This document shows positions 1-38,076 of a stretch of DNA of 56,820 nt, one piece after another. The translations under genes were made by a program, and so were the position numbers. The notes under the pieces are model-generated. The model searched no databases, was not told the origin of the DNA, and saw only the letters and a list, made by a program, of their open reading frames with translations. Numbering within the stretch: the stretch's first letter is position 1; the number at the start of each line of letters is the position of its first letter. Origin of the DNA: an uncultured Gammaproteobacteria bacterium (lineage in GTDB: Bacteria > Patescibacteriota > Patescibacteriia > UBA9934). The stretch lies in the NCBI GenBank assembly GCA_964372415.1, contig CAYJQH010000004.1, positions 27,387 through 84,206 on the forward strand. Reading direction: 5' to 3'.

Positions 1-95
1 CCACCACCTGGTCCGCGACCTCGAGGTCGCCGTTCACGCTGGGCCGGGGCGCCCGCTTTTGTTTCGTTAGCAATGGGTTGTGCTTGTTCAATCAT
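1..95 (-). CDS. rpsE: 30S ribosomal protein S5, N-terminal fragment (runs off window start)
   Basis: ATG at 95 reads MIEQAQPIANETKAGAPAQRERRPRGRGPGG, directly after rplR in spc-operon order. Only the unconserved N-terminal extension is visible, so the call rests on synteny. Confidence 0.7.
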   Translation of the reverse strand, partial: MIEQAQPIANETKAGAPAQRERRPRGRGPGG

Positions 96-461: not shown

Positions 462-1016
462 TTATTCGGTCTTACCGGCTGCCTTACCCACCTTACGGCG
501 AATAACTTCGTCGGTATATTTGAAACCCTTACCTTTATACGGCTCCGGTTTCTTAAGAGCGCGGATTTCGGCTGCCACCTTACCTACGAGTTGCGCATCA
601 GACGAATTCAAAGTCAAAAGATTATTCTCTACCTTGGCGCTAACACCCGCGGGAAGCGCGTAACGCACCTCATGAGAAAAACCGATACTACAAATCAAAG
701 TTGTACCTTGAACCTGCATCCGGAAACCCACGCCGTTCAATTCCAGGGTTTTGGTGTAGCCTTCGGTCACGCCCTTCACCATTTGCGCCAAGAGAGCACG
801 CATAGTTCCCCAAATAGCCCGATCCTCGCTCTCTGGGTCTTGGACCGTAACATTAAGCTGTGCTACTCCCCCGTCGTCAGAACGAGTAACCATAGCATGC
901 GGATGCAAGACGAGTTTAAGCTCACCTTTTGGTCCTTTAACATTTACCGCGCCGTTTATTACTTCGGCACTAACGCCGGCGGGGAGAGTGATTGGTTTCT
1001 TTCCAATACGAGACAT
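462..1016 (-). CDS. rplF: 50S ribosomal protein L6
   Basis: Starts MSRIGKKPI; KPEPYKGKG motif. Confidence 0.98.
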   Translation of the reverse strand: MSRIGKKPITLPAGVSAEVINGAVNVKGPKGELKLVLHPHAMVTRSDDGGVAQLNVTVQDPESEDRAIWGTMRALLAQMVKGVTEGYTKTLELNGVGFRMQVQGTTLICSIGFSHEVRYALPAGVSAKVENNLLTLNSSDAQLVGKVAAEIRALKKPEPYKGKGFKYTDEVIRRKVGKAAGKTE

Positions 1017-7096: not shown

Positions 7097-7707
7097 ACGT
7101 TGCCATCAGAGCTAGTAATAGTGACAAAACTTCCGCGGGCGCCGGGCAGCGCTCCTTTGATGCCAATAATGTTCTTTTCGGAATCAATGGTCATGACCTC
7201 TAAGTGCTTAATGGTCACACGATCCGAGCCCATGCGGCCAGCCATACGAATACCCTTAAAGACTCGTTGAATACCACCGGCACCAATCGAACCTGATTTG
7301 CGAACTTGATCTTTGTGACCGTGAGTAGTGGGATGACCGGCAAAACCATGGCGTTTGACCACACCCTGGAAACCCCGACCTTTGCTAGTACCAACCACAC
7401 TGACCTTGTCCCCTACAGCAAACGTGTTAACCGTAAGTACTTGGCCGGCTTCTACGTTTTCACCTTCAGGTAAGCTGACCTGAGCTAGTTTACGAAATGG
7501 TCCATGACCAGCAAACTCAGACTTCTGTGGCTTTGCGGCCCGAACATTCTTACCCGTGCCAATAATGGCCACTGCGCGACCCTGGGGGTCTTGGCGAACC
7601 GCCGCCACCGTACAGGGTTCAACAGCCACGAGGGTAACCGGAACAACCGAACCGTCAGCTCGGTAGACCTGCGTCATTTCAAGTTTTTTTCCAAGAAGAT
7701 ACTTCAT
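7084..7707 (-). CDS. rplC: 50S ribosomal protein L3
   Basis: Starts MKYLLGKKLEMTQV; SKGRGFQG; MAGRMG. Confidence 0.97.
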   Translation of the reverse strand: MKYLLGKKLEMTQVYRADGSVVPVTLVAVEPCTVAAVRQDPQGRAVAIIGTGKNVRAAKPQKSEFAGHGPFRKLAQVSLPEGENVEAGQVLTVNTFAVGDKVSVVGTSKGRGFQGVVKRHGFAGHPTTHGHKDQVRKSGSIGAGGIQRVFKGIRMAGRMGSDRVTIKHLEVMTIDSEKNIIGIKGALPGARGSFVTITSSDGNVWHK

Positions 7708-18620: not shown

Positions 18621-20969
18621 TTAAAAATCTAAAACCTTCACCCTCGGCTCTTCATCGATTATTTTTATTCGTATAGTGCCGTCCAGATCTGTTCTGTAAA
18701 TCTGGACTTTACTCATTTGCAGTCTGTCTATAACAAACGGGTCGGGGTGTCCGTAATTATTGTTTTCACCAACCGAAATAATGGCTATCTTTGGCTTCAC
18801 TGTGTCAAGAAACTCCGGTCCAGTGGAAGTTTCGCTTCCATGATGACCGACTTTGAGCACTCCAACCTCCCCTAGCCCCTCTTTCTGCAAGGAAGGAGCG
18901 TACTTTAATATCGGCTGCTCTTCCTGAACACCAGCATCGCCCATGAGCAACATTTTCCCCTCATTGGCTTCTAGAAGAAAAATCAGCGAGCCGTCGTTTG
19001 GATCTTCAAGCATCGCGCCGTCAAATGACTCCTTGGGCCACAGCGTCGTCAAAGTGACTCCCCCGCCAAGCTCAAGTACTTCCCCAGCTTTGATAACGCG
19101 ACGCTTGGATTCTGCCAGGCGAGAATATTCAGCAAATTCCGATGTGTCGTAGCCCTGATCAGCATCAATAACTTCAGATACCTGATAGCGCTCGAGAAGT
19201 GGCACAAGACCCGCCACATGGTCGGCATGCGGATGGGTATTAACCACAATGTCCACATTTCGATCCCACCACGGAAGAACTGCTGAAAGCTTTTCGAGCA
19301 CCGTAAAATCGGGTCCGCCGTCAATGAGTACATCTTTCTCTGGTCCGTCGATAAAAATGGCGTCGCCCTGACCAACATCGAATACCCAAACTGTAGTTCC
19401 AAGGTTCCCTCCTGTGATCCAGGCATAGCGCATTAAAAGACCAAAGGTCACAGCGGCGAAAAGCGTGGGCACCAACCAGCGTTTAGGAGCTGGCGAAATG
19501 GCCAACCCCCGCCTAGCCACCCTCACATTGTGGACGGGGAACAAGAGCAATATAGAAACGACAATAAGAGCCACACCTGCGACGAGTGTGGGGATATTAC
19601 TGAGCGAACGGATGATTTCGAGGATTGCCGACAAAAAAACCCAGGCTGGAAAGGCCAGCATGGCGCCGAGTCCTTGGTTAAGGGCACCGACGACTGTCGC
19701 TAAAGCTCCAAAGCCCATAGCGTATGGCACAAACGGCAAAACCAGGAGGTTGGCAATCGGGCCTATAGCAGCAAAGCGGCCAAAGTTAAGAAGCACAATC
19801 GGTAACGTCGCAATGGTCGCGGCAAGGGTGGTCGATAAAGCTTCGCGCAGGCCGAAAGCTTGCGGTATCCACCACAATCGTTCGCTCATTGGCCGTGACC
19901 ACCACAAAAGTCCAGCCGTCGAGAGCACCGACAACTGAAAACCGATGTCGTCGCGCAACAATCGAGGCTCAACGAGAAGCATAACAGCCACCGTGGTCAA
20001 CAAAATGTTTCGTGGCGATGTTTTGCGGCCGGTTTGCTTGGCCGTAAGGACAAGCGCCGCCATAATGCCGGCTCGAGTTACCGCTGCTTGAGCCCCAGCT
20101 ATGATGACAAAGGCAATAATGCCTAAAAGTAAAAGTGGAAAAGCCTCTTGGCGTCTAAAACCTAAGTGAAGCGCGAGCACAAAGAGCACACTTACGACAA
20201 TCGCCACGTTGGTCCCTGAAGCAGCGACGATATGCGAGGTTCCGGTTGAAATAAATCTTTCCTGCCATTCGTCGGAAAACGTATTGTCGCCAAGGAGAAG
20301 ACCAACAAGGAGCGTCGCCTGAGGCTCACCAAACGTACGCTCGATCACGGTCACTAGGCTGTTATGAAGATGGGCTAATTTGATTCTAAAACCCGTCGTG
20401 GCATACGGGTCGAGGATTATCGGTGCGTCATAAATTAGACACTGGCTATAAATGTCTTTAAGCGCTAAATATTTATCGTAAGCAAAGCCGTCGAATGGCT
20501 CGGGGGCTTCAAAAGCACAAGTAAGGGCAATGCGAGATCCAACAGGTATCTCAGGATAGCGTGGAACCGTCGCTAAGAGTTGGTCGTCGAAACTTTCGCC
20601 GTTTGCGGTGATCTCGTTTAGCGTGAGCCGTTGTCGATCGTCCAACTCACGTTTAACAACTATGGCCTCAACAGGGTGATGACCGCCGTTTAAAAGAGCG
20701 ATCGATTGCTCGCCCGGACCAACTGCGTTGTAACGAAGGCAACCGAGACCAAGACCGAGGGTCAGAAGCATGACATATACCGCTCGCCTTTCAAGAACCC
20801 CACCCGAGCCCTCTCCTATAGCGCGGAGAGGGAGCTGTTTAAGGAGAAACAGCGCGCAGGCAATAACCACGGTGACGATTGCCCAATGAAATTGCGAGGA
20901 TGCTAAAGCGATACCGGCAATGATGCCGGTCATGGCACTCGCCACGGCAAGTCCAGGAAGAAACCGCAC
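18621..20969 (-). CDS. comEC: ComEC/Rec2 DNA uptake channel with C-terminal metallo-beta-lactamase domain
   Basis: GTSHIVAASGTN, SVLSTAGL, DVGQGDA, THPHADHVAG, LKVGHHGS, YGHP. Confidence 0.95.
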   Translation of the reverse strand: MRFLPGLAVASAMTGIIAGIALASSQFHWAIVTVVIACALFLLKQLPLRAIGEGSGGVLERRAVYVMLLTLGLGLGCLRYNAVGPGEQSIALLNGGHHPVEAIVVKRELDDRQRLTLNEITANGESFDDQLLATVPRYPEIPVGSRIALTCAFEAPEPFDGFAYDKYLALKDIYSQCLIYDAPIILDPYATTGFRIKLAHLHNSLVTVIERTFGEPQATLLVGLLLGDNTFSDEWQERFISTGTSHIVAASGTNVAIVVSVLFVLALHLGFRRQEAFPLLLLGIIAFVIIAGAQAAVTRAGIMAALVLTAKQTGRKTSPRNILLTTVAVMLLVEPRLLRDDIGFQLSVLSTAGLLWWSRPMSERLWWIPQAFGLREALSTTLAATIATLPIVLLNFGRFAAIGPIANLLVLPFVPYAMGFGALATVVGALNQGLGAMLAFPAWVFLSAILEIIRSLSNIPTLVAGVALIVVSILLLFPVHNVRVARRGLAISPAPKRWLVPTLFAAVTFGLLMRYAWITGGNLGTTVWVFDVGQGDAIFIDGPEKDVLIDGGPDFTVLEKLSAVLPWWDRNVDIVVNTHPHADHVAGLVPLLERYQVSEVIDADQGYDTSEFAEYSRLAESKRRVIKAGEVLELGGGVTLTTLWPKESFDGAMLEDPNDGSLIFLLEANEGKMLLMGDAGVQEEQPILKYAPSLQKEGLGEVGVLKVGHHGSETSTGPEFLDTVKPKIAIISVGENNNYGHPDPFVIDRLQMSKVQIYRTDLDGTIRIKIIDEEPRVKVLDF
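18865..18898 (+). repeat. C-tail/hairpin element copy, in-frame in comEC (PSLQKEGLGEV)
   Basis: ACCTCCCCTAGCCCCTCTTT-CTGC-AAGGAAGGAG. Confidence 0.7.
19505..19542 (+). repeat. Degenerate C-tail/hairpin element copy, in-frame in the comEC linker
   Basis: ACCCCCGCCTAGCCACCCTCACATTGTGGACGGGGAAC, 28/38 identical (counted by hand) to the copy at 30214. Confidence 0.55.
20797..20834 (+). repeat. C-tail/hairpin element copy, in-frame in comEC (LPLRAIGEGSGGV)
   Basis: ACCCCACCCGAG-CCCTCTCC-tatagcgc-GGAGAGGG-AG. Confidence 0.7.
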
Positions 20970-25265: not shown

Positions 25266-26291
25266 ATGCGTGGTCAACTGCCGCAAAAACTTGTCGAACG
25301 CCTCACCCAACAGTTTGGTCCAACCACCTTCCGCGAGATAGAACGCGCTTTTTCGGTTCGTCGATTACCAATATTTCGCGTCAATACCCTCAAGGCAACT
25401 GACGAGCAGATCATGGAGCTCATGCGAGAGCAAAATATAGCTTTCGAACGGGTGAAAAACGTGCCCCACGCCTTCAAAGTAAAAAACAAAAGCAACCACG
25501 AGCTCCTCGAGCTCCCAATTACTCAGCAAGGGCTTATCTATCTCCAAGGCATTACTTCGATGCTCCCTCCTCTATTCATCGAACCACAACCTCGCGAGGC
25601 AATTCTCGACCTGTGTGCCGCTCCGGGGAGTAAGACGACACAACTCGCGGCTTTATGTCTAACCTCCCCCTACCCCCTCCTTAACCAAGGAGGTGACGCT
25701 ATGCGACAACGTAGCACAAGGCGTTTCCCCCTTGCCTGCCCTGAGAGAAATCGAAGGGTTGAAGGGGGAGATCAAGAGGGGGTCAGTTCATGTCACATCC
25801 TGGCTGTAGAAGAAAACGCTATTCGATACCAAAAACTCGTAAACAGCCTCGAGACGCAAGGCGCCTCAAATGTCGAAACTCGCCACGGTGACTCAACACA
25901 ACTTCATAAGGAGTTTCCCGAGAGCTTCGACAAAGTCTTAGCCGATGTCCCCTGCTCGGCTGAGGGTCGCATTGACCTCAACGATCCGCGATCGTACAAG
26001 TATTGGTCGGAAAAAAACATCGTGGCCCACGCCAAGCTCCAACGCCGCTTGCTCCGATCGGCCGTAGCTTGTCTCAAACCTGGCGGCACGCTTGTCTACT
26101 CGACCTGCACCCTTGCTCCCGAAGAAAACGAAAAAATGATCGAGTGGCTAGTGGCCGAGTTTCCCCAAATGAAGCCGGTCGAAATCTCTGTTCCCCTCAA
26201 AGGCTCCCGAAAAACTGCATTCAAGACGTTCACCGTCCTCCCAACCGATGAGGCAGAAGGTTTTTTTGTGGCGAAACTTAAAAAAGTTTGA
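25266..26291 (+). CDS. RsmB/NOP2 family RNA m5C methyltransferase with ~40-aa repeat-derived insertion
   Basis: LDLCAAPGSKT, DVPCSAEG, VYSTCT, EENE, EGFFVA. Confidence 0.92.
   Translation: MRGQLPQKLVERLTQQFGPTTFREIERAFSVRRLPIFRVNTLKATDEQIMELMREQNIAFERVKNVPHAFKVKNKSNHELLELPITQQGLIYLQGITSMLPPLFIEPQPREAILDLCAAPGSKTTQLAALCLTSPYPLLNQGGDAMRQRSTRRFPLACPERNRRVEGGDQEGVSSCHILAVEENAIRYQKLVNSLETQGASNVETRHGDSTQLHKEFPESFDKVLADVPCSAEGRIDLNDPRSYKYWSEKNIVAHAKLQRRLLRSAVACLKPGGTLVYSTCTLAPEENEKMIEWLVAEFPQMKPVEISVPLKGSRKTAFKTFTVLPTDEAEGFFVAKLKKV
25662..25783. mobile_element. 122-bp MITE-like composite with two inverted C-tail/hairpin ends, in-frame in the methyltransferase
   Basis: Left ACCTCCCCCTACCCCCTCCTT-aacc-AAGGAGG; right (rc) ACCCCCTCTTGATCTCCCCCTT...AAGGGGG; nested CCCTGAG-N7-GAAGGG core at 25739-25758. 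Confidence 0.6.
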
Positions 26292-28108: not shown

Positions 28109-30175
28109 TTACACTTTGAGAATACGTGCTTGTTCTTCTTCTTGGTAGGCTTCGAGCGTATCACCAATCTCTACTTTCGTCTTACCTTGGAAGGCAATAC
28201 CGCAATCCTGACCGGCTACCACATCTTTAACCGAGGTTTTGCCCGATTGGAGTGCCTCGATTTTACCTTCACCTACCACTTGGCCACCACGAAAAATACG
28301 TAGCGTAGCTCCGGGAATGAGTTTTCCTTTCTTAACCTTGGCGCCAATAATCACCCCCTTGTCGGTCTTTTTAAATAAGGCCAAAACTTCACCGGAACCA
28401 AGCTCGGTGTACACCTTTTCCGAAGGAATAAGTTTTTTTAGACGCTCGACCACGTTTTCGAATAATTTATAAATTACAGACGAACTTTCAATAATTACAT
28501 TCTTGTCACGCGCCAGCTGTTCGGCGCCGGCTGCCTTAACGTTAAAGGCATAAACAACCGCTTGCGCGCCTTCGGCACGAAGCACGTCTGCATCCGTAAT
28601 ATTACCTAGACCTTTGCCGACTATTTTAACGCCAACATAAGGGTTTTCGACCTTCTCAATCATGCCAATTAAGGCTTCAAGAGAGCCCAGAACATCGGCT
28701 TTAACAACGATATTCAAATACACCTTGCCCTCTTCTTTCTTTTCCTCATCGGTCTTCGGGGCAGCAGTCTTCATGGCAATCTCGCCAACGCCGCCAGCCG
28801 CTCGACCAGCCTGTTCACGAAGTACTTCAAGGCTTGAGACATCTTCTGGGACTTCCAGAATGTCGCCAATCGATGGGGCTGCTTTAAGACCGAGAATTTT
28901 AACTGGGGTCGAAGGCGTTGCTTCTTTTATGTTTGAACCGTCATGCGCTTTCATAGCCCGAACGCGACCATAATTCATGCCACGTACAGCCATGGTGTCC
29001 TGCAGTTTGAGGGTTCCAGTTTGCACAAGAACAGTAGCTACAGGACCGGCACCCTTATCGACGCGAGATTCAATAATCGTTCCAACAGCGCGACGAGTGG
29101 GATCGGCTACGATACTGTCTTTCTCAAGGTCAGCGACGAATAAAAGCACGTCTAATAGACCGTCGATATTCATGTTCTTCTTGGCCGAAATCGGAACACA
29201 GATTGTTTTGCCACCCCAATCCTCAGGCACGAGCCCAAGCTCAGCAAGTTTGCTCTTCACGAGCTCGAGATTGGCGTCTGGTTTATCGATTTTGTTTATG
29301 GCCACGACAAAAGGCAGCTTAGCAGCTTTAATAATGTCGATAGCTTCCCTAGTTTGCGGCTGCACACCGTCATCGGCGGCCACGACGAGAATTGCAATAT
29401 CGGCTACCTTGGCGCCACGTGAACGCATGACCGTAAATGCCTCGTGACCTGGAGTATCGATAAATGTGAGCTTGCGCGAGATCCCTCGATCGCCTTCTAC
29501 TCCTCGGGATTTCGTGGCAGTCTTCGACTGCCACTCAACTTGATAGGCACCGATGTGCTGCGTAATTCCCCCAGCTTCGCCAGCCACTACATTAGCCTTA
29601 CGAATCGCGTCGAGGAGTGATGTCTTACCATGGTCAACGTGACCCATGACCACAATCACCGGGGCCCGCGGCTGAACTTTACCTTCTGCTTTCTCTTCTT
29701 CTTTAGCTTTTGCTAAACGATCTTCGCCACCGGTTGCGCCATCGTCTTTCTTCTCGCTTGCCGGTTCGGCGATAAAACCAAGATCTTCAGCCACGATGCT
29801 TGCTGTTTCAAAATCGATCCGCTCGTTCAAAGAAGCCAAAATGCCGCTCCTCATGAGCTCTTGCATAACCTTAGCAACCGGCAGATTGAGACTATTCGCA
29901 AAGTCACGAACCGTAACGGTTGGTGGAATCTGCACCCGCGGCGCATCACCGGCAAGCACCTGAGCCTTGCGGTCAGCCCGAGCTTTTTGTTCCTCCATTT
30001 TCTTCTGGAGGTACTGGCGCTTCTTGTGCTCCTGCCAAGCGTTCATGATCTTACCCACGTCACGATCGGGAAGCTTGATAGCTTTGTTCCCAATATCAAA
30101 TCCAAGCTCTGGGAGCTTGGCGCGCAATTCTTCGGTCGGTACCCGCAAACGCCGGGCAAGTTCGGAAATATTCAT
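28109..30175 (-). CDS. infB: Translation initiation factor IF-2
   Basis: [36 protein letters not shown]. Confidence 0.98.
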   Translation of the reverse strand: MNISELARRLRVPTEELRAKLPELGFDIGNKAIKLPDRDVGKIMNAWQEHKKRQYLQKKMEEQKARADRKAQVLAGDAPRVQIPPTVTVRDFANSLNLPVAKVMQELMRSGILASLNERIDFETASIVAEDLGFIAEPASEKKDDGATGGEDRLAKAKEEEKAEGKVQPRAPVIVVMGHVDHGKTSLLDAIRKANVVAGEAGGITQHIGAYQVEWQSKTATKSRGVEGDRGISRKLTFIDTPGHEAFTVMRSRGAKVADIAILVVAADDGVQPQTREAIDIIKAAKLPFVVAINKIDKPDANLELVKSKLAELGLVPEDWGGKTICVPISAKKNMNIDGLLDVLLFVADLEKDSIVADPTRRAVGTIIESRVDKGAGPVATVLVQTGTLKLQDTMAVRGMNYGRVRAMKAHDGSNIKEATPSTPVKILGLKAAPSIGDILEVPEDVSSLEVLREQAGRAAGGVGEIAMKTAAPKTDEEKKEEGKVYLNIVVKADVLGSLEALIGMIEKVENPYVGVKIVGKGLGNITDADVLRAEGAQAVVYAFNVKAAGAEQLARDKNVIIESSSVIYKLFENVVERLKKLIPSEKVYTELGSGEVLALFKKTDKGVIIGAKVKKGKLIPGATLRIFRGGQVVGEGKIEALQSGKTSVKDVVAGQDCGIAFQGKTKVEIGDTLEAYQEEEQARILKV
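29477..29533. repeat. In-frame double-hairpin insertion in infB
   Basis: cgagatccc...gggatttcg plus GTGGCAGTC-ttc-GACTGCCAC; encodes WQSKTATKSRGVEGDRGISR. Confidence 0.6.
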
Positions 30176-30213
30176 GCCGAAGAGCGTAGCGCAAAAAGCG
30201 CTCGCCGTAAAGG

Positions 30214-30661
30214 ACCTCCCCCTAACCCCCTCCACTTTGTGTAGGGAGAACTCGAGCGCTCCGCTCGGCTCTCTTCCGACGCAATACGTGTCGAATTTCT
30301 TCAAGCACGCTCTCGAGGCCACCAAGAACGTCACCGTTTGAGAAACGAATTACCTCGATATTCTGATCATTAATATAAGCTGTTCTGTTTGCATCATAAA
30401 TTTTCTTCTCAGGAGTGTAGTGAGGTGGACCATCAACTTCGATAACTAATCGATCCTCAGAACAATAAAAGTCGGCAATAAAAGGACCAATGTTGTGCTG
30501 TCGTCGAAACTTAGCATTTTCAACCTGTCGGTTCCTGAGATAGCGCCAAAGAAGGGCCTCGGCAAACGTTTCTTTCTTGCGCAGTATTTGTCGCCTCCAT
30601 AGATATAACCAGTTAAGCATAAAGCTCTCCCTCCACCAGGTGGAAGGAGTTAGAGGGAGGT
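30214..30661. mobile_element. 448-bp cassette: DUF559 endonuclease gene bounded by inverted C-tail/hairpin repeats
   Basis: Left ACCTCCCCCTAACCCCCTCC-actttgtgt-AGGGAG; right (rc) ACCTCCCTCTAACTCCTTCC-acctggt-GGAGGGAG; no target-site duplication seen. Confidence 0.6.
30222..30620 (-). CDS. DUF559 / Vsr-like endonuclease domain protein
   Basis: T.AE.LLW..LR, KFRRQHNIGPFIADFYC, LVIEVDG..H, D..R, EVIRFSN. Confidence 0.9.
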   Translation of the reverse strand: MLNWLYLWRRQILRKKETFAEALLWRYLRNRQVENAKFRRQHNIGPFIADFYCSEDRLVIEVDGPPHYTPEKKIYDANRTAYINDQNIEVIRFSNGDVLGGLESVLEEIRHVLRRKRAERSARVLPTQSGGG

Positions 30662-31158
30662 CAGTCTAACGCGTGCCGCAGCTGCACCTGCCGCGTGGTG
30701 GCACCACACGACCCAACTTCGAGTTGGTTTTGAAAAACGGCGAGGTAGTACCCCGGAAGGGCTGACGAAAACTGATCGTTTGGATCAACCGGAATAGCCG
30801 GTAGCAACTCTTCGCCTACGTATTCACGAAGATTTAGGCAGGCGTTAGAGGTCACCGGATCAGCGCATTGTTCACCGTGTGCGCCAGCACAATTACCTGA
30901 ACCAATGAGCACCTTGCCGTCCCCCGTACCTTTAAGTTGTTCGACTAGTCCAGCAAACTTTTGTGGATCCTCATTTTCAAGCTGAAGAACAGACGACATG
31001 AGAATCCTTACATGTTCGGCTCGCTCAATATCGCGTTCCTTAGCGATGACCCGCATGGGTCCCAAAATCATGACAATGACAAAACCTACAAAGAGCGCTA
31101 CAGCGAGTGCTGTAAGCACGTCGAGCTTCGTGACACCCATGTACTGACTGTGCGACAT
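30661..31158 (-). CDS. Type IV pilin-like protein (non-canonical N-terminal methylation motif)
   Basis: GVTKLDVL followed by a hydrophobic helix, then KERDIER (like KARDxxR); Cys pairs; IPVDP. Confidence 0.55.
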   Translation of the reverse strand: MSHSQYMGVTKLDVLTALAVALFVGFVIVMILGPMRVIAKERDIERAEHVRILMSSVLQLENEDPQKFAGLVEQLKGTGDGKVLIGSGNCAGAHGEQCADPVTSNACLNLREYVGEELLPAIPVDPNDQFSSALPGYYLAVFQNQLEVGSCGATTRQVQLRHALD

Positions 31159-31585: not shown

Positions 31586-32431
31586 TTATCTTTGGCAAAT
31601 CGGACAGTAGTGTGTTCCCCGACCACCGAGCACGATTTTCTTAATTGGTGCCTCACACGTCTGACAAAGCTGACCGTCGCGACCGTAGACTTTAAGAAAG
31701 CTTAAGAAACTACCTTTCTCACCATCGGTATCAACATAATCGTTGGCACTTGTCCCTTTTTGGGCGAGTGATTCGGCCAGCACCTTCTTAACCTCGGTGA
31801 CGAGACGCAAGCGATCGTTCGCGGTGAGAGTGCCGAGTCGACGGGTCGGTCGAATACCCGCTCGATGACAAGCTTCGTCGGCGTAGATGTTCCCGACGCC
31901 CGCGATCGCTTCCTGGTCGAGTAGAGCCGCTTTCACTTTTCGCGTTTTCGGCGTTACAAGACAAGCCGCGAGCTCTTCGGCTGAGGTATCAAGGGGTTCG
32001 GGGCCGTAAATTTCCGTAGCCTGACGCAAACCGTCTGCGTCAACGAGGCGCAAGTAGCCAAACATTCGCACGTCAGACCAAACAAGGCGGTCGCCGCTGT
32101 CTAAAACGAATAACATACGGTCGTGCTTGGTAGGAGTGTAGACCCCCTCTGACTCCCCCTTACTTAAGGGTGAGACGCTCGGCAGAAACAAAAACTTACC
32201 AGTCATCTTGAGGTGCCCGAGCATCGCCCGACCGTCGTCGAGATGAAAAATAAGGAGCTTTGCTCGTCGAGCGACTTTAGCAATGCGGCTTCCAGTGACT
32301 GCTTCTGCGAATTTCTGTCCGTGAGGGCGTTCGCGGCCTGACTTGAAAACAGTCACTGTAGAGAGTATCTTGCCACGGAGATGCTTATCTAGTTGCTGAC
32401 GTATTGTTTCAACTTCGGGAAGTTCGGGCAT
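31586..32431 (-). CDS. mutM: Formamidopyrimidine-DNA glycosylase
   Basis: MPELPEVET, RRAKLL, HLKMTG, GVGNIYADE, C-terminal CxxC...CxxC zinc finger. Confidence 0.97.
   Translation of the reverse strand: MPELPEVETIRQQLDKHLRGKILSTVTVFKSGRERPHGQKFAEAVTGSRIAKVARRAKLLIFHLDDGRAMLGHLKMTGKFLFLPSVSPLSKGESEGVYTPTKHDRMLFVLDSGDRLVWSDVRMFGYLRLVDADGLRQATEIYGPEPLDTSAEELAACLVTPKTRKVKAALLDQEAIAGVGNIYADEACHRAGIRPTRRLGTLTANDRLRLVTEVKKVLAESLAQKGTSANDYVDTDGEKGSFLSFLKVYGRDGQLCQTCEAPIKKIVLGGRGTHYCPICQR
32142..32174 (+). repeat. C-tail/hairpin element copy, in-frame in mutM (SPLSKGESEGV)
   Basis: ACCCCCTCTGACTCCCCCTT-actt-AAGGGTGAG. Confidence 0.7.
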
Positions 32432-37952: not shown

Positions 37953-38028
<76 letters not shown>

Positions 38029-38029
38029 A

Positions 38030-38076
38030 AAAATCCCTCTTCCCTTCACATATGCTCAGGGTAGAGGGATTTTTTT
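38030..38076. terminator. Bidirectional terminator between tRNA-Lys and rnc
   Basis: AAAATCCCTCT...AGAGGGATTTT; loop holds a CCCTTC-N7-CTCAGGG repeat core. Confidence 0.7.

Follow-up and report, generated by a model that had tools for sequence, protein, structure and literature searches.

The DNA analysed here is a stretch of 56,820 nucleotides (the window) from contig CAYJQH010000004.1 of an uncultured bacterium placed by GTDB in the Patescibacteriota, and the feature in question is an in-frame insert in its rsmF gene (25266-26291, + strand). The product belongs to the RsmB/RsmF (NOL1/NOP2/Sun) family of 5-methylcytosine (m5C) RNA methyltransferases (Pfam PF01189/PF22458/PF17125). It has 341 residues, as against about 300 in its orthologs, and its best homologs are RsmB/NOP-family proteins of Patescibacteria/Uhrbacteria of that shorter length. 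Pfam matched PF01189 at 1.6e-40 with the match broken into two stretches, and a N-terminal ferredoxin-like domain was also detected. The invariant columns are kept at C117-T124 (motif I, AAPGSKT), D227-C230 (motif IV, DxPCS, with the catalytic cysteine) and T280-C281 (motif VI, the TC cysteine), and the alignment of homologs showed that all invariant motif residues, the motif IV and VI cysteines included, are retained in the insert-bearing protein.

Fetched loci are referred to below as L### and homologous proteins as P####; unit counts and motif searches cover the 56.8-kb window and these loci. Codon alignment to the closest empty-site ortholog (L083, protein P0002, 75% identity), with L002 and L003 as further empty-site orthologs, placed the insert at 25659-25787 on the + strand, between helix alphaA and strand beta2; it comprises 129 nt or 43 codons (LTSPYPLLNQGGDAMRQRSTRRFPLACPERNRRVEGGDQEGVS). 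The segment that starts after motif I and reaches to the acidic residue closing strand beta2 counts 58 residues in the window protein and exactly 17 in 67 of 70 fetched loci, which come from Patescibacteria, Clostridia, Omnitrophota, Planctomycetes and one archaeon. Among the 120 best homologs, 97 have a loop of standard length. An earlier note, made from the sequence alone, had counted 47 residues between QLAAL and ILAVE where homologs usually have 6-7 and had proposed alignment to RsmB/RsmF orthologs to fix the boundaries. Alignments of 26 and 120 homologs gave about 41 additional residues at this point, which is the same excess.

The rsmF frame is free of stops throughout the insert, as the same note had seen, and the other five frames each contain stops. 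The peptide is basic and Arg-rich (7 Arg among 43 residues) and would be translated as part of RsmF. The insert is carried by Logan contigs from three runs of two studies, two of which span its full length with 0 differences, so an assembly artefact was rejected; no empty-site contig was seen among the Logan contigs searched. No target-site duplication was found on the codon alignment to empty-site orthologs, again in agreement with the first inspection. The sequence ATGTC, which recurs at both borders, was considered as such a duplication and rejected, as it represents two native Cys codons that are also present in P0002. As RNA the insert folds strongly (-55.8 kcal/mol, z = -3.4) into a closing C5/G5 stem with three hairpins. 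A ribozyme or intron was rejected, since an Rfam scan of 25550-25900 returned only chance miRNA-like matches (E >0.6).

AlphaFold2 generated a model of the window RsmF with a confident core (mean pLDDT 85, pTM 0.84), whose fold matches in the PDB were YebU/RsmF, Trm4, Nop2 and NSUN structures (E-values 1e-22 to 1e-25). Residues 140-170 have pLDDT <50 and no secondary structure, and are flanked by helix 123-132 (alphaA, after motif I) and strand 177-182 (beta2). The insert is thus predicted to be a disordered excursion that leaves the catalytic motifs intact. Rossmann topology, as distinct from coordinates, suggests that the alphaA-beta2 loop lies on the face opposite the S-adenosylmethionine (SAM)/cofactor and RNA/substrate sites, so the description of the insert as being beside the SAM-binding motif is correct in sequence but probably not in space. 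In a disordered loop opposite the substrate face, selection would be expected to keep only in-frame copies.

The DNA of the insert contains two repeat units. The left unit (25660-25699, + strand), of a subfamily here called alpha, consists of box1 CCTCCCCC (25663-25670), a turn TA, box2 CCCCCTCC (25673-25680), a loop TTAACCAA (25681-25688) and a purine arm GGAGGTGA (25689-25696); box2 is the exact mirror of box1 and the purine arm is partly decayed. The right unit (25726-25783, - strand) is inverted and of a second subfamily, beta: a C-arm TCCCCCTT (25726-25733) is followed by a 28-nt loop, a G-arm AAGGGGGAG (25762-25770), a turn ATCAA and a G-tail GAGGGGGT (25776-25783). The tails of both units point outward, and the outer ends of the insert are inverted C/G boxes; this anatomy bears out the earlier description of two tail/hairpin elements facing each other with tails outward. 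Between the units is a spacer hairpin, GCTATG-CGACAA-CGTAGC (25698-25715, + strand), found in the RNA fold, and reading the sequence directly shows a Shine-Dalgarno-like AAGGAGGTGA followed by an in-frame ATG at 25701 (25687-25703, + strand).

The 28-nt loop of the right unit holds a second core, CCCTGAG-N7-GAAGGG, which had also been noticed before and was located at 25739-25758 (+ strand). Copies of 25726-25766 with 86-94% identity were found on other contigs of run X2, in unrelated flanks and in one case with both a C-tail and a G-tail, so the long-loop form is itself a repeat. The only other exact copy of the core in the window is at 38042-38061 (- strand), in the loop of a hairpin after tRNA-Lys. 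That terminator-like hairpin (38028-38075) follows the tRNA gene directly, and its outer stem is of C-box/G-box type. For the core itself, CCCU/AGGG pairing with closure by tandem G-A pairs is possible.

Eight units were counted in the window, all of them within 18.8-32.2 kb: three in comEC, two in rsmF, two bracketing a DUF559 gene and one in mutM. They represent six independent sites inside 13.3 kb of the 56.8 kb (P ~0.004). The alpha subfamily is made up of the units at 25662, 30214 and 30661rc (70-87% identity), and the beta subfamily of those at 25783rc and 32142 together with a unit in the rsmF of L006 (83% identity). Over the aligned tail and arm the left rsmF unit is 83% identical to the DUF559 3' unit (30213-30233), and its 18-nt tail motif recurs at 30215, where 0.04 matches would be expected. 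The mutM unit (32141) and the L006 rsmF unit each share 83% identity with the right unit. The beta unit in mutM (32141-32176, + strand; gene 31586-32431, - strand) is in frame and adds 9-11 residues (SPLSKGESEGV) relative to PDB 1L1T and the MutM of L168/L170. The three units in comEC (18621-20969, - strand) are degenerate; they lie at 18864-18898, 19504-19542 and 20796-20835 (+ strand), are in frame and encode SLQKEGLGEVGV, VHNVRVARRGLA and RAIGEGSGGV. Every genic unit seen, in the window and in relatives, is open in the frame of its host.

The consensus CCTCCCCTAGCCCCTCC-loop-GGAGGGG also occurs in other genes and spacers of L001, L003, L005, L006, L010 and L084, and CCTCCCCTAGCCCCTCC is conserved among genomes whose rsmF is only 55-66% identical. 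In L005, another Patescibacterium, an inverted doublet of alpha-type units with tails outward (7525-7625, ~90 nt) lies in frame in the linker of the RarA/MgsA AAA ATPase and adds ~21 residues relative to PDB 3PVS. Within the window, an nhmmer profile of tail and arm recovered the eight copies already known and no others; the 1.27 Mb of fetched loci yielded nothing significant, with only L006 and L005 at E = 2.6-6.5, the motif being too short for a database of that size. The CysS gene of an Uhrbacterium (L084 16939-16964) contains a unit of the form C-arm/G-arm/TTA/G-tail.

Every intact unit has a 5' pyrimidine box that mirrors the hairpin's pyrimidine arm, and this box therefore corresponds in parallel to the purine arm (C opposite G, T opposite A). 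The three arm relations hold at 7/7 to 8/8 in L001, L005a, L006 and window unit 30661rc, and between the alpha and beta subfamilies the single T/A position shifts in concert in the three arms. In the rsmF units the mirror symmetry of box1 and box2 is complete (8/8 in the left, 7/7 in the right in a 7-nt register), and the purine arms are degraded, with arm pairing of 6/8 and 6/7. Such symmetry, with arms of 7-9 nt, is the three-arm relation of G/C-rich intrastrand triplex motifs. Most units have TAA/TAG as their turn (on the G strand, TTA/CTA), but the left rsmF unit has TA and the right one TGAT. The first loops of these two measure 8 nt and 28 nt (with a nested hairpin), respectively, as against 3-6 nt in the TMECO class, where the second loop is 3 nt (TTA or CCG). 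TMECO, also known as PIT or BoxC, has the consensus CCCTCNCCC-N3-6-GGGNGAGGG-N3-GGGNGAGGG with TTA as the common second loop, and its triplex formation has been demonstrated in vitro by circular dichroism and nuclear magnetic resonance (Holder et al. 2015, PMC4666352). The published consensus has no match in the window and matched only in an E. coli locus (L171) and a metagenomic one (L117). Judged by their symmetry, the window units are a different sequence family of the same structural class.

Three syntenic relatives (L168, L169 and L170), whose IF-2 is 83-85% identical to that of the window, share with it the gene order TruB, MutM, pilin-like gene, IF-2, Trx, TrxB, and in L168, where the fetched DNA reaches that far, rsmF comes next. 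No unit was found in 48.6 kb of these relatives. At the site of the 450-nt DUF559 cassette described below they have 54-131 nt and no cassette; all three have a short MutM, and L168 a short RsmF. The absence of both cassette and units points to recent, joint gains. Close as well as syntenic relatives without the repeats have the short loop and not an equally long one, the comparison on which the earlier note had staked its proposal. From these alignments the rsmF insert is a recent, lineage-specific gain.

The same loop has been altered elsewhere. Inserts of 3-41 residues are present in it in 16 of the 120 best homologs, and many of them encode a Pro-rich then Gly-rich peptide of the kind typical of C-box/G-box hairpins. 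On an ortholog tree (built by a quick search with the loop columns left out) the trait changes 13 times, and at least eight of these changes are forced by well-supported branches. L001 has a single alpha unit in the orientation of the left unit of the window, L006 has a beta unit in the orientation opposite to that of the right unit, and L084, L085 and L086 have related longer hairpins; the inserts thus vary in sequence, length, subfamily and orientation among lineages. The near-identical pair L086 (insert) and L087 (empty) shows a gain of 30 nt in which a few flanking codons were replaced and no target duplication arose. In two Uhrbacteria (L084 9659-9690 and L085 10432-10462) a 14-bp hairpin in the rsmF loop is kept through two compensatory changes (G-C to A-U and U-A to C-G), and the peptide differs. 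As the alphaA-beta2 loop is essentially the sole internal indel site of the RsmF family, this hot spot is read as the result of a selection filter acting on frequent insertions; target preference may also be its source.

The DUF559 cassette (30213-30664, - strand) lies between the pilin-like gene and infB. It consists of an open reading frame (ORF, 30222-30620) for a Vsr-like PD-(D/E)xK nuclease (PF04480), which keeps the catalytic D/E/H columns, and of inverted alpha units at 30213-30250 and 30626-30664, which share 87% identity. The cassette was inserted just upstream of a TTTAC promoter-like box that relatives retain. In its 5' unit the purine arm acts as a Shine-Dalgarno-like sequence just before the DUF559 ATG, an arrangement mirrored in the rsmF insert, where the ATG at 25701 lies four bases past the purine arm of the left unit. 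This layout is a weak hint at cassette ancestry, with a probability of ~8% by chance on our own estimate. The right end of the insert is only 54-58% identical to the cassette ends.

A metagenome survey, searched with 8 DUF559 sequences, yielded 63 distinct DUF559 loci, in which C-arm hairpins were detected by an exact 6-bp stem, so that degenerate units are missed. The hairpin density in the 260-nt flanks of DUF559 was 4.08/kb; outside them these loci had 0.30/kb, and their remaining non-ORF DNA had 0.65/kb, so that the flanks are enriched 6-14 times. In 36 of 51 loci the two flanks were related as inverted repeats beyond every shuffle, and near-perfect terminal repeats of 50-120 nt were present in L100, L104, L135, L156 and L166. 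The end hairpin of L100/L104, CCCCTCC-TTGGMTAA-GGAGGGG, is almost that of L005 and the window units. In L117 the DUF559 match (197-499) has inverted exact TMECO matches on both sides, at 56-88 (+) and 638-670 (-). Tails of the form PxPxP...GEG end 10 of 29 DUF559 homologs, from several phyla. Several DUF559 homologs carry the source names 'leucyl-tRNA synthetase', 'methionine synthase' or 'DNA methyltransferase', which fits cassettes embedded in such host genes.

The association extends to E. coli K-12, in which ycjD is a DUF559 gene (locus L171). A canonical TMECO is present 168 nt downstream of it (L171 7206-7240), for which we estimate a chance probability of ~0.003 from the 23 TMECOs reported for this genome. 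Also in this downstream region (NC_000913.3 1351040-1351406) are a ~45-nt duplicate of the 3' coding end of ycjD and then a GGGTTAGGGG remnant, which together look like the relic of a second cassette end. A published survey (PMC9881135) gave DUF559 a 14-fold enrichment among predicted targets of inversion, a result consistent with flanking inverted repeats, and the cassette may be an invertible switch. A literature search found no paper that links DUF559 to mobile repeats or to a mobile element.

Taken together, the insert is probably selfish palindromic (triplex-motif) repeat DNA, translated with RsmF in a permissive loop that tolerates it. Two members of a lineage-specific, GC-rich repeat family of the form pyrimidine tail, turn and hairpin sit inverted in the codons of the alphaA-beta2 loop; tolerant loops would be the places where selection lets in-frame copies persist. 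In related lineages at least eight gains or losses of inserts, several of the inserts being units of this kind, have taken place in the same loop. It is a real possibility, if somewhat short of an even chance, that the units are end-modules of DUF559 cassettes, free copies of which would have spread with the help of the nuclease much as REP/REPIN repeats relate to RAYT genes. Chemistry aided by DUF559 would leave no target-site duplication and could replace a few flanking codons.

The earlier note had proposed a non-autonomous derivative of the DUF559 cassette, of MITE (miniature transposable element with inverted repeats) type. The shared repeat family, the arrangement of the units and the likeness of the left unit to the cassette 3' unit all stand, and the insert as a non-autonomous partner of the cassette is plausible but unproven. 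Direct descent is not supported, as the insert pairs an alpha with a beta unit where the cassette has two alpha ends; a deletion derivative of the neighbouring cassette was rejected when the 30-nt spacer showed no significant similarity to the subterminal DNA of the cassette (alignment, p = 0.06-0.08). The term MITE does not apply in its strict sense, neither a target-site duplication nor a transposase having been found. Single alpha or beta units occupy this loop in other genomes, so a single MITE is no more likely than two insertions one after the other (an alpha and an inverted beta unit, in either order), and a deletion derivative of the neighbouring cassette is less likely than these.

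Several points weigh against the insert being translated repeat DNA spread by DUF559. The argument for its translation comes from the open frame, no RNA run having been found that contains the stretch; the decayed rsmF units may be old relics that are no longer active; and the insert combines an alpha unit with an inverted beta unit, whereas both cassette ends are alpha and the spacer lacks cassette homology. DUF559 is a nuclease fold for which we know of no transposase activity or transposition chemistry, nor of any activity, cut site or transposition intermediate, and the nuclease may be a mere passenger, landing within or next to the repeats. In that case the units would spread or arise alone, by slippage, template switching or recombination at non-B DNA, and DUF559 would insert in or beside them or be retained there. 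This we regard as unlikely, though it has to be taken seriously: L001, L005 and L006 carry units without a DUF559 gene in the 10-13 kb fetched, and the insertion in L086, with its replaced flanking codons and missing target duplication, is more like repair or recombination than transposition. Moreover, no transposase or integrase is found near TMECO sites and the motif is tied to local genome instability (Holder et al. 2015, PMC4666352). Against independent spread, the conservation of CCTCCCCTAGCCCCTCC where rsmF itself has diverged suggests that a protein recognises it. In the syntenic comparison cassette and units are a joint gain, and the DUF559 flanks are usually matched inverted copies, more like a defined element end than a random landing site.

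That the longer loop was itself selected, as an Arg-rich arm of 43 residues contacting RNA or the ribosome, is very unlikely. The extension does occur at the same position in 16 of 120 orthologs, is basic, and in some cases outlasts speciation (L084/L085 and the P0078/P0080/P0105 clade), but the constancy of the loop across phyla, the diversity of its inserts, the predicted disorder in the window protein and the probable position opposite the substrate site all argue otherwise, and in L084/L085 it is the hairpin and not the peptide that the compensatory changes conserve. Least credible of all is removal of the insert in the manner of an intron or intein before the protein is made or matured, which would leave an enzyme with a normal loop. 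Patescibacteria carry introns in their rRNA genes, and the strong RNA structure of the insert could be taken in the same sense. No Rfam match and no intein or intron signatures were found, however, and a length that is a multiple of three with only the host frame open, like the open host frame of the other genic units seen, is expected of translated DNA and needless for a spliced one.

Repeat DNA tolerated in a protein loop, the explanation preferred here, has known parallels. In-frame palindromic repeats (Rickettsia palindromic elements, PMC10969869; intragenic repetitive extragenic palindromic (REP) sequences and REP dimers, PMC3733652) and triplex-motif repeats (PMC4666352) are already known, and the rsmF insert agrees with the first type in being part of a multi-copy family that lies in a conserved gene, keeps its frame and is missing from relatives. 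The window units share with TMECO the order of their arms, in which a pyrimidine arm, a loop (3-8 nt, though 28 nt in the right rsmF unit) and a purine arm lead by way of a turn (3 nt in most units, with the TTA of TMECO type A on the G strand) to another purine arm, the mirror image of the first; they are also GC-rich, ~35-40 nt long, multi-copy, patchy among close relatives and tied to locally variable DNA. They differ in that TMECOs are reported to be always intergenic in E. coli and to have no linked mobility gene (PMC4666352), whereas the window units are within ORFs and apparently translated, form an inverted doublet, occur in Patescibacteria and make up the ends of a DUF559 cassette. 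The arm sequences differ too (CCTCCCCC in the window, CCCTCNCCC in TMECO), and the rsmF units are partly decayed.

The Rickettsia palindromic elements (RPEs; Ogata et al. 2000, reviewed in PMC10969869) are likewise short, selfish, palindromic repeats that lie in frame in housekeeping genes of a small-genome bacterium, are translated at structurally tolerant positions and have no known transposase. They are single palindromes of ~100-150 bp with a conserved peptide and are AT-richer, in contrast to the window units, which are ~38 nt, have triplex-type symmetry, form in the rsmF insert a composite of two subfamilies and have a candidate partner gene in DUF559. The intragenic REPs and their inverted dimers lie inside genes, often of replication or repair, and encode 20-30+ residues, and related species can have different REPs at roughly one position of a given gene (Di Nocera et al. 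2013, PMC3733652). In the REPtron a presumed mobilising gene is flanked by inverted repeat copies, and the inverted dimer is the likely mobile unit (PMC3733652). REPs, however, have a GTAG or CGTC tag and the Y1 (HUH) transposase RAYT, while the window units have no tag and flank a Vsr-like PD-(D/E)xK nuclease.

The window cassette also resembles a homing endonuclease gene in being a small, patchy, self-contained nuclease gene inserted at a conserved locus, and Vsr-like (EDxHD) homing endonucleases such as I-Bth0305I share their nuclease fold with DUF559. Homing endonucleases, however, reside in introns or inteins and are copied into a single cognate allele that lacks them; they are not known to scatter dozens of short end repeats without a nuclease over unrelated sites.

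Within the literature searched, three aspects are new: the triplex-motif class inside coding sequence, its presence in Patescibacteria with a repeatedly hit loop, and a quantitative tie to DUF559 that includes E. coli ycjD. Translated selfish palindromes, documented mainly in Rickettsia and some REP-rich proteobacteria, would thereby be extended to the Candidate Phyla Radiation, where there is almost no intergenic space and protein loops become the landing ground. A functionally unexplained class of triplex motif is statistically tied to the DUF559 family, in E. coli K-12 as well (ycjD and its TMECO), so that the origin of the motif and the instability of nearby DNA become testable in that organism. 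We put forward tentatively, and consider somewhat doubtful, a wider proposal, that TMECO/PIT/BoxC and the hairpins encoding 'PSP...GEG' found from cyanobacteria to Patescibacteria are non-autonomous end-modules of a widespread cassette whose sole protein is the DUF559 Vsr-like PD-(D/E)xK nuclease. The partnership would be like that of REPIN and RAYT, the three-arm DNA structure would be the recognised end, and survival in gene-dense genomes would come from in-frame insertion into loops; if true, this would account for where TMECO comes from, so far unexplained, and for the instability of the genome near it. In annotation, inserts of this sort explain odd Pro-/Gly-rich loops and 'PSP..GEG' tails of many predicted proteins and can break Pfam domain calls, and the alphaA-beta2 loop is a naturally validated permissive site in RsmB/F-type methyltransferases.

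The infB gene of the window has an insert of its own. In the G domain of IF-2 (29444-29548, - strand) 16 residues, QSKTATKSRGVEGDRGIS, are inserted between G2 and G3; relative L168 has this insert as well, and L170 lacks it. At the DNA level it consists of two hairpins, one with a perfect 9-bp stem (GTGGCAGTC/GACTGCCAC), and it looks like an older in-frame palindromic insert of another family.

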